DNA of 64,000 bases from assembly GCA_963745835.1 (NCBI GenBank), contig CAVUZH010000014.1, positions 448,001 to 512,000 on the forward strand, in the 5' to 3' direction. Numbering within the stretch: the stretch's first letter is position 1; each line of letters starts with the position of its first letter. The DNA comes from an uncultured delta proteobacterium (lineage in GTDB: Bacteria > Desulfobacterota > Binatia > UBA9968). Positions 26,146 to 26,625 of the stretch are shown here, in pieces. Under the pieces are notes generated by a model, which saw nothing but the letters and a program-made list of their open reading frames with translations, made no database searches and had not been told where the DNA came from. The position numbers were made by a program, and so were the translations under genes.

Positions 26146-26625
26146 TCAATCTTTGCCCGATTGTTCCCGTAGAAAAGTCAGCACCTCTTGCGGGTGCTGA
26201 TCAGCTTTTTTGACGGTCGGCCAGTGTTTGATCACGTTGCCCCTTGAGCCGATTACCAATGTTGAGCGGATCGTGCCCTCCACGGTTTTTCCGTACATCA
26301 TCTTCTTGCCGAATGCCTGGTATTTTTTCATGACCTCGGCCTTGGGATCGGCCAAAAGCACGAACGGCAAATCGAACTTCTCAGCAAACTTCTTATGAGA
26401 AGCAATGCTGTCTTTGCTGATACCCAGAACTATCGCTCCCAGTCTTTTCATTTGCGTATTTAGCTCGCGGAACCCGCAAGCTTCCTTGGTTCAGCCCGGA
26501 GTACTGTCCTTGGGATAGAAGAATAAGACCATTTTTTGGCCGCGATAATCCTCAAGCGAATGTGTCTTGCCGTCGTGGCCTTCCAGACTGAACGCCGGCG
26601 CTTTCTGCCCCTCCAAACTCTTCAT
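26146..26625 (-). CDS. bcp: BCP/PrxQ peroxiredoxin selenoprotein, Sec45 at TGA 26493-26491
   Basis: [23 protein letters not shown]...[20 protein letters not shown] in frame with ORF 26146-26451; paralog at 28311 has TGC at the same site. Confidence 0.93.
26462..26482 (-). promoter_or_regulatory. Candidate bacterial SECIS hairpin
   Basis: AGCTTGCGG-GTT-CCGCGAGCT (9 bp with one G-U), loop 17 nt after TGA; disrupted in the Cys paralog. Confidence 0.75.

Follow-up and report, generated by a model that had tools for sequence, protein, structure and literature searches.

Does the TGA triplet that interrupts a peroxiredoxin reading frame in the DNA of an uncultured soil bacterium encode selenocysteine (Sec), or does it mark a gene that has been lost? 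The frame lies at 26146..26625 on the minus strand of a stretch of 64,000 nucleotides, the whole of which is called here the window. The initial annotation had proposed a hidden selenoprotein of the BCP type, with a Cys-containing paralog close by. With a probability that we put at about 0.9, the locus is a real selenoprotein gene, ordinary in mechanism and belonging to a known family, its predicted product being a thioredoxin-dependent peroxiredoxin of the BCP/PrxQ type in which Sec takes the place of the peroxidatic Cys.

A BCP-type frame with UGA at the catalytic codon

The reading frame runs on the minus strand from the ATG at 26625-26623 to a TGA stop at 26148-26146 and comprises 159 codons, one of which, codon 45 (26493-26491), is an internal TGA. 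Minus-strand translation confirmed the frame as it had been drawn in the initial annotation. Direct reading of the sequence also reveals a Shine-Dalgarno-like stretch, GGAGAAAGGC (26631..26640, minus strand), 5 nt upstream of the ATG.

The in-frame TGA (26491..26493) occupies the codon of the peroxidatic Cys, where Sec (U) is predicted. Translated in this way, the active-site motif is P38-K-D-S-T42-P-G-U45 (P-x3-T-x2-U). Cys50, five residues past U45 (U45-TKEA-C50), stands at the resolving-Cys position of BCP-type enzymes, R120 is the conserved catalytic Arg, and P38, T42, C/U45 and R120 are invariant in an alignment of 29 sequences. The Pfam domain AhpC-TSA (PF00578) covers residues 6-132 (3e-38; 131 bits, cut-off 26); it also matches the product of a second BCP/PrxQ gene, the Cys paralog, at 28311..28778 on the same strand (155 aa, 59% identical, TGC at codon 45). 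The ten PDB matches at E <= 1e-20 are without exception BCP/AhpC-TSA entries, whose peroxidatic Cys ('tpgCt') lies opposite U45 in the alignments. An alignment of TGA with Cys in homologous proteins had been foreseen, and the TGA indeed falls on the peroxidatic Cys both of the Cys homologs and of the solved BCP structures.

In NCBIfam, the best-scoring families are PrxQ and Bcp, and the protein reaches the equivalog cut-off of neither (PrxQ NF053650, 172.7 against 260; Bcp NF006960, 126.5 against 140). Since these are the two best families, the PDB matches are all of the BCP/AhpC-TSA kind and both cut-offs are missed, the product is best described as a BCP-type peroxiredoxin that is an equivalog of neither model.

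A promoter and terminator scan at the locus returned sites no commoner than in shuffled sequences, and the single minus-strand hairpin that the terminator scan placed close to the 3' end of the gene falls within the coding region. The one RNA run consulted (X15) gave thin and patchy contig cover of the gene.

Conservation of the TGA codon

The protein was searched against 61 related genomes and then against 301 genomes across the phylum. In the 67 loci fetched, the codon aligned with codon 45 is TGA in 27 and TGC or TGT in the other 40. Within the genus, the TGA gene is intact in G000 (the genome bin of the window), G004 and G006, at 92-94% identity. In G005 (L131, G005:C121 112-589, minus strand), the TGA and an identical hairpin are kept, but an A run located 3' to this hairpin is longer by one nucleotide, which shifts the frame; this extra A is either an assembly error or a sign of early decay. 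The congener G003 carries TGC in the syntenic gene. In G001, the protein search recovered just the other paralog, and nothing matched at threshold in G002 and G007. Outside the genus, TGA is found in four genomes that represent three further genera of the family and carry it in the other type of paralog, in 18 of the 19 genomes of one sister-family genus, and in two lone genomes elsewhere in the phylum (L140, L163).

In the three intact congeners, the 115 codons downstream of the TGA are free of stops and frameshifts. Pairwise comparison of these genes gives 11/6, 12/10 and 8/7 synonymous/nonsynonymous codon differences downstream of the TGA, and 5/2, 8/1 and 5/1 upstream of it. Purifying selection acts on both sides of the TGA.

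These figures bear on the start of translation as well. The list of open reading frames includes a 101-codon ORF (26146-26451) that begins at ATG 26451, and one may ask whether this ORF alone is translated, into an N-terminally truncated protein devoid of an active site. Such a product would be without the P-x3-T-x2-C/U motif and half of the fold, yet the 44 codons upstream of the TGA are conserved, with differences that are mostly synonymous, and the Shine-Dalgarno-like sequence precedes ATG 26625. Translation of the short ORF alone is, in our opinion, extremely unlikely. In annotation, the Sec-BCP gene would end up as a 101-residue fragment or be overlooked entirely.

The protein databases are consistent with this last point. 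The best 120 homologs are all full-length (154-203 aa, at most 83% identical) and are thus presumably Cys forms, as expected if Sec forms are missing from gene calls. Some of the closest named Cys homologs among the database matches are labelled Candidatus Binatia MAGs. A motif search of genome contigs was also run with a Cys-codon back-translation, which cannot report Sec forms; the matches listed were all Cys forms, drawn from many phyla and with identities of up to 58%.

Independent DNA was found in metagenomes. In soil and rhizosphere runs from several studies, 50-69% of the sampled words of 26100-28800 are present, and a contig of 1200 nt from run X2, which is possibly the source sample of the window, is identical to 26100-26635 except at position 26259 and therefore carries the TGA too. 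The initial annotation had pointed to close homologs and reads as the place where a TGC or TGT might come to light; three other genomes of the genus and this metagenome contig keep the TGA. An assembly or sequencing error, the true codon being TGC or TGT, might be suspected because the neighbouring gene of the window contains three single-base insertions that are probably spurious or strain-specific. However, the TGA is present in the independently assembled G004, G006 and G005 as well as in the X2 contig, and a single-base error cannot explain the hairpin-forming substitutions that accompany it, which leaves this explanation with a practically negligible probability.

The hairpin downstream of the UGA codon

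A predicted coding-region SECIS hairpin lies at 26462..26482 on the minus strand. Its sequence, AGCUUGCGG-GUU-CCGCGAGCU, forms a stem of 9 pairs, one of them G.U, beginning 9 nt past the UGA, and a GUU apical loop that begins 18 nt past it; in the 67 nt counted from the TGA this is the centroid structure, at -14.5 kcal/mol. The Cys paralog, folded likewise, has no equivalent hairpin. The initial annotation, which had described a 9-bp hairpin with a GTT loop in the TGA copy only and had taken the paralog as a built-in Cys control, was right on both counts, and the paralog string that it quoted (TGC ACC AAG GAA GCT TGC GGC TTT CGC GAT) reads exactly so. Its statement that the differences creating the hairpin are mostly synonymous is half right: four hairpin-internal codons differ between the paralogs, and GGG/GGC and TTC/TTT are synonymous, whereas GAG/GAT (E/D) and CTA/TCT (L/S) change the residue.

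Taken as a whole, the 67-nt stretch has no excess stability (z = -0.85; 36 of 200 shuffles fold as well). Because the folding energy of the whole segment is not significant, a synonymous-recoding null was adopted, which draws on the codon usage of 127 long ORFs of the contig to rewrite the codons of the 14 residues concerned. The -14.5 kcal/mol of the Sec copy is attained by only 27 of 5000 such recodings, against 938 of 5000 for the -10.0 kcal/mol of the Cys paralog. Under this null, the local hairpin is unusual. An Rfam scan of 25500-29500 at E <= 10 detected no SECIS family, the sole match being a chance RsmV.

Among the relatives, a SECIS-like stem-loop with a small loop follows the TGA in all 27 TGA copies, with an onset 8-16 nt past the UGA, which supports the reading of the hairpin as a coding-region SECIS; in the three large TGA clades, the apical loop begins with G. 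The mean local energy is -11.8 kcal/mol in the 27 TGA copies versus -7.75 in the 40 Cys copies, a difference that the nominal P value exaggerates because the sequences are kin. The hairpins of G004, G006 and G005 are identical to that of the window. This invariance means that there is no covariation within the window's own clade, and the covariation evidence is that of another, independently converted clade. The hairpin of the second clade of the window's family is AGCGUGCGG-GUU-CCGC(G)ACGCU and that of the sister-family clade GGCCCGUA-GUA-UACGGG(A)CC; they are unlike in sequence and in register, which fits independent origins. In the sister-family clade (18 sequences), all 144 of 144 cells hold standard pairs; three pairs vary to G.U only, and one stem pair has undergone a double change, from U-A to C-G, in 5 sequences. 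This double change ties a synonymous change of an Arg codon to the replacement of Ile by Met or Leu, meaning that RNA structure shapes protein sequence.

A separate feature of the same clade concerns the protein: in 15 of its 18 Sec-BCPs (L032, L034-L042, L123-L130), the resolving Cys is replaced (U-TKEA-R...).

In E. coli fdhF, the SECIS is a hairpin within the reading frame, close to the UGA on its 3' side, whose apical loop contains G and U and lies about 20 nt from that codon. The window hairpin resembles it in position and in the G and U of its loop, but it is shorter, with a perfect 9-bp stem, a 3-nt loop and no bulged U.

The nature of the hairpin and its recurrence weigh on the question of whether the gene is dead. 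A pseudogene could have arisen by a nonsense mutation in the catalytic codon of a redundant BCP, the upstream Cys copy doing the work. The presence of that copy 1.7 kb away, the adjoining EgtB-like gene (see below), which is out of frame in the window, and the 1-nt insertion of the G005 copy would all accord with such decay. Nevertheless, the TGA sits exactly on the catalytic codon and has been kept in four congeneric genomes, the 115 codons that follow are open and differ more by synonymous than by nonsynonymous changes, the hairpin that accompanies the TGA is rare among synonymous recodings, and the combination of TGA and hairpin recurs in four other clades. We therefore hold a pseudogene to be highly unlikely and retain a functional selenoprotein gene as the preferred reading.

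We deduce the mechanism, from Sec incorporation to the steps of catalysis and the type of reductant, from what is established for Sec insertion in bacteria. The 9-bp hairpin, located 9 nt past the UGA and topped by a GUU loop with G first, would recruit SelB-GTP-Sec-tRNA(Sec), and UGA codon 45 would thereby be decoded as Sec, not as a stop. In the catalytic cycle, peroxide reduction would fall to the U45 selenolate; the selenenic acid so formed would then be resolved by Cys50 as an intramolecular selenenylsulfide, from which a thioredoxin-type reductant would regenerate the enzyme.

Sec-decoding machinery and genome-wide use of Sec

The genome to which the window belongs (G000) is a bin of 25 contigs, 97% complete, with an estimated contamination of 9.3%. 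The initial annotation had made its case dependent on selA, selB and selC. One tRNA-SeC(tca), i.e. tRNA-Sec(UCA), was found by aragorn on contig C13, and selA, selB and selD are clustered on contig C22 (G000:C22:65479-70161), all of them over the curated cut-offs (609 bits against 268 for selA, 394 against 242 for selB and 383 against 125 for selD). The selD gene carries one in-frame TGA, in the context GUAAK, and probably encodes a selenoprotein itself. In all five relatives tested, selB also scores over its cut-off. Since the bin is contaminated to the extent of 9.3%, the link between the window contig and the contigs bearing selABD and tRNA-Sec rests on the binning and on the TGA-bearing AhpC/TSA genes, which are spread over five contigs.

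UGA is a leaky codon, and Cys can stand in for Sec under selenium limitation in some systems. On such general grounds, one may imagine that UGA 45 is read through mainly as Trp or Cys, by a near-cognate or mis-acylated tRNA, or that it is read only when selenium is scarce. Against this stand the complete Sec machinery of the genome and the fact that Trp at the peroxidatic position would be inactive, yet purifying selection is seen. The hairpin, moreover, has the small G-containing apical loop that the description given in PMC1088965 assigns to bacterial SECIS elements, defined there as stem-loops just downstream of the UGA. Altogether, non-Sec read-through is very unlikely, and insertion of Sec remains the reading that we favour.

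In G000, the AhpC-TSA profile matches 17 genes, of which nine contain an in-frame TGA; in eight of them this TGA is at the active site (six T/SxxU and two UxxC). Two of these putative Sec genes are in the window besides the one under study. The first (31568-32035, minus strand, 155 aa) has TGA at the peroxidatic position, AFYPLDFTGG-U-ERE, and its best NCBIfam match is PrxU, under the cut-off. The second (8983-9528, plus strand) combines a signal-peptide-like N-terminus with an active-site TGA, NFYVLDFSPT-U-IKD; a close paralog of it is present at C3:958168-958539. TGA also occurs in two of 12 CMD/AhpD-like matches of the same genome, and in none of its six thioredoxin and three GPx matches; no Rdx was found. 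The predicted use of Sec is concentrated in the peroxiredoxin superfamily, and the same pattern is seen in the congeners. In this soil lineage, Sec is apparently used by about half of the genes of the peroxiredoxin superfamily, which is a pointer to a peroxiredoxin-rich selenoproteome.

Evolution of the Sec and Cys forms

How often has the catalytic residue switched? A quick tree of the 67 rows needs five changes between Sec and Cys, and by the trees there have been at least five switches. In a second tree, built with more care from 28 rows, the Sec clade that contains the window gene (100/100) is placed inside a clade of 12 rows (96/92) whose other nine rows are Cys, and the Cys paralog belongs to a separate clade that is sister to the Sec forms of other genera (99/97). 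Forcing the family's two Sec clades together costs 48 log-likelihood units and is rejected by the AU test (p = 0.0003), the groups for this test having been named after the first tree had been viewed. One Cys row, L016, comes from an unpublished genome (G018), and no result hangs on L016 alone.

Given that this ortholog has Cys in all the other genera and in one congener, the most parsimonious history is a recent conversion from Cys to Sec within the genus, and the nesting of the window's Sec clade among Cys orthologs points to it. Compared with the Cys orthologs, the changes are TGC to TGA, GGC to GGG, TTT to TTC and GAC to GAG (D to E), and it is the last three that complete the stem. Cys was retained in the older paralog, which lies 1.7 kb upstream. 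The congener G003 retains selB and other TGA-bearing AhpC/TSA genes; its Cys state is therefore not the result of a loss of the Sec trait. The locus would thus offer a clean and very recent case of a Cys enzyme turning into a selenoenzyme, by one stop-creating and three nearby substitutions, with a congener that is still Cys; one of the three hairpin-building substitutions forces the replacement of Asp by Glu.

Relation to known selenoprotein families

In the tables cited here, Prx (TxxU, COG1225) has figured among the bacterial selenoprotein families since 2005, and recurrent conversion from Cys to Sec has been reported for it. Table 1 of the Sargasso Sea survey (PMC1088965) lists 43 selenoprotein genes under bacterial 'Peroxiredoxin (Prx), COG1225', Table 1 of Zhang et al. 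2006 (PMC1794560) assigns to Prx 12 selenoproteins and five conversions from Cys to Sec, and a 2026 review (PMC13188914) includes 'Peroxiredoxin (Prx), PF00578, TxxU' among the experimentally supported families, citing PrxU of Eubacterium acidaminophilum. With this family (PF00578, COG1225), as delineated by Zhang, Gladyshev and co-workers, the window protein shares the domain, the T-x-x-U site and Sec in place of the peroxidatic Cys, to which are added a coding-region SECIS with a small G-containing loop and widespread Cys homologs. There is no essential difference; what the window contributes is a new lineage, a very recent conversion and a Cys paralog in the same gene cluster. We take COG1225 to be the COG of Bcp, the entry in the survey's table itself saying just 'Peroxiredoxin'. 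The adjective 'hidden' of the initial annotation accordingly holds in one sense only: the gene is hidden from gene callers, but Sec-containing BCP-type peroxiredoxins were already an established selenoprotein family. Literature searches combining PrxQ or BCP with selenocysteine returned nothing on a Sec-containing BCP as such among the matches listed, the family being covered as 'Prx'. The known mechanism of Sec insertion is unchanged by the window gene.

Two other systems can be compared. PrxU of Eubacterium acidaminophilum, reportedly verified by experiment as a Sec peroxiredoxin (Sohling et al., in 2001), is likewise a Sec-containing, thioredoxin-dependent peroxiredoxin, but of another subfamily: with the PrxU model (NF040737), whose cut-off is 270 bits, the window protein reaches only 45.2 bits, and the profile has 233 positions against 159 residues in the window protein. 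The Cys-type BCP/PrxQ enzymes (Xanthomonas campestris BCP, 3gkk and 5iiz; 5enu) have in common with it the fold family, the P-x3-T-x2-C motif, a resolving Cys at +5 and the catalytic Arg; the window protein differs by its predicted Sec at the peroxidatic position and its mRNA by the putative recoding hairpin. Closely related cases may already be present in the supplementary tables of PMC1794560, among the Prx conversion events.

The gene neighbourhood

The Cys paralog is preceded, directly upstream and on the same strand, by a gene for a LysR regulator of the 'selenium metabolism-associated' type (28960..29928; NF040786, 267.5 bits against 250). Divergent from the latter is a GcvT-like gene (29959-31062, plus strand), a conserved neighbour of the BCP locus. 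The LysR and GcvT-like genes also flank the BCP locus in G004, G003 and G021; in G021, two ORFs, of 94 and 202 aa, stand in place of an undivided LysR gene.

Between the two BCP genes lies a gene of the sulfoxide-synthase family, EgtB/OvoA/SenA-like, with DinB_2 and FGE-sulfatase domains (26934..28298, minus strand). It reaches none of the NCBIfam cut-offs (OvoA_Nterm 272 against 400, EgtB 222 against 360, SenA 220 against 420) and should therefore represent an uncharacterised branch of that family. In the window, its reading frame is disrupted between about 27907 and about 27705, whereas its orthologs in G004, G006 and G003 are intact (452, 458 and 479 aa). The break was considered as a second Sec codon, a candidate that was rejected: translation with TGA read as U runs into three TGAs and a TAA within 20 codons. 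It is a frameshift, since the conserved HEYMHQETLLYM motif is in another frame. Relative to the window, contigs of runs X1, X2 and X4 are without one base at 27907 and two near 27705-27727.

It is tempting to see in the succession LysR, BCP(Cys), EgtB/OvoA/SenA-like and BCP(Sec) a putative selenium-responsive antioxidant module, in which the regulator would shift the Cys and Sec isoenzymes according to selenium supply and the EgtB-like enzyme would produce an antioxidant thiol or selenol derived from histidine. An archaeal parallel exists in the LysR-type control of Sec and Cys hydrogenase isoenzymes in Methanococcus. In favour of such a module, the LysR gene is a conserved neighbour in G000, G004, G003 and G021. 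Against it, G003 has this neighbour although both of its BCPs are Cys, and we consider the proposal unlikely. Were it true, the within-genus conversion from Cys to Sec would be the building of a Sec/Cys pair caught in the act.

A further gene appears at this place in some relatives. In G004 (L133 5169-5969), an ORF of 266 aa for a PhnD-like substrate-binding protein is inserted between the EgtB-like and Sec-BCP genes, and weakly matches a presumed ABC binding protein for selenate (54.8 bits, cut-off 250). The same position is occupied by a 165-aa remnant in G006 and by merely 308 nt in the window (26626-26933).
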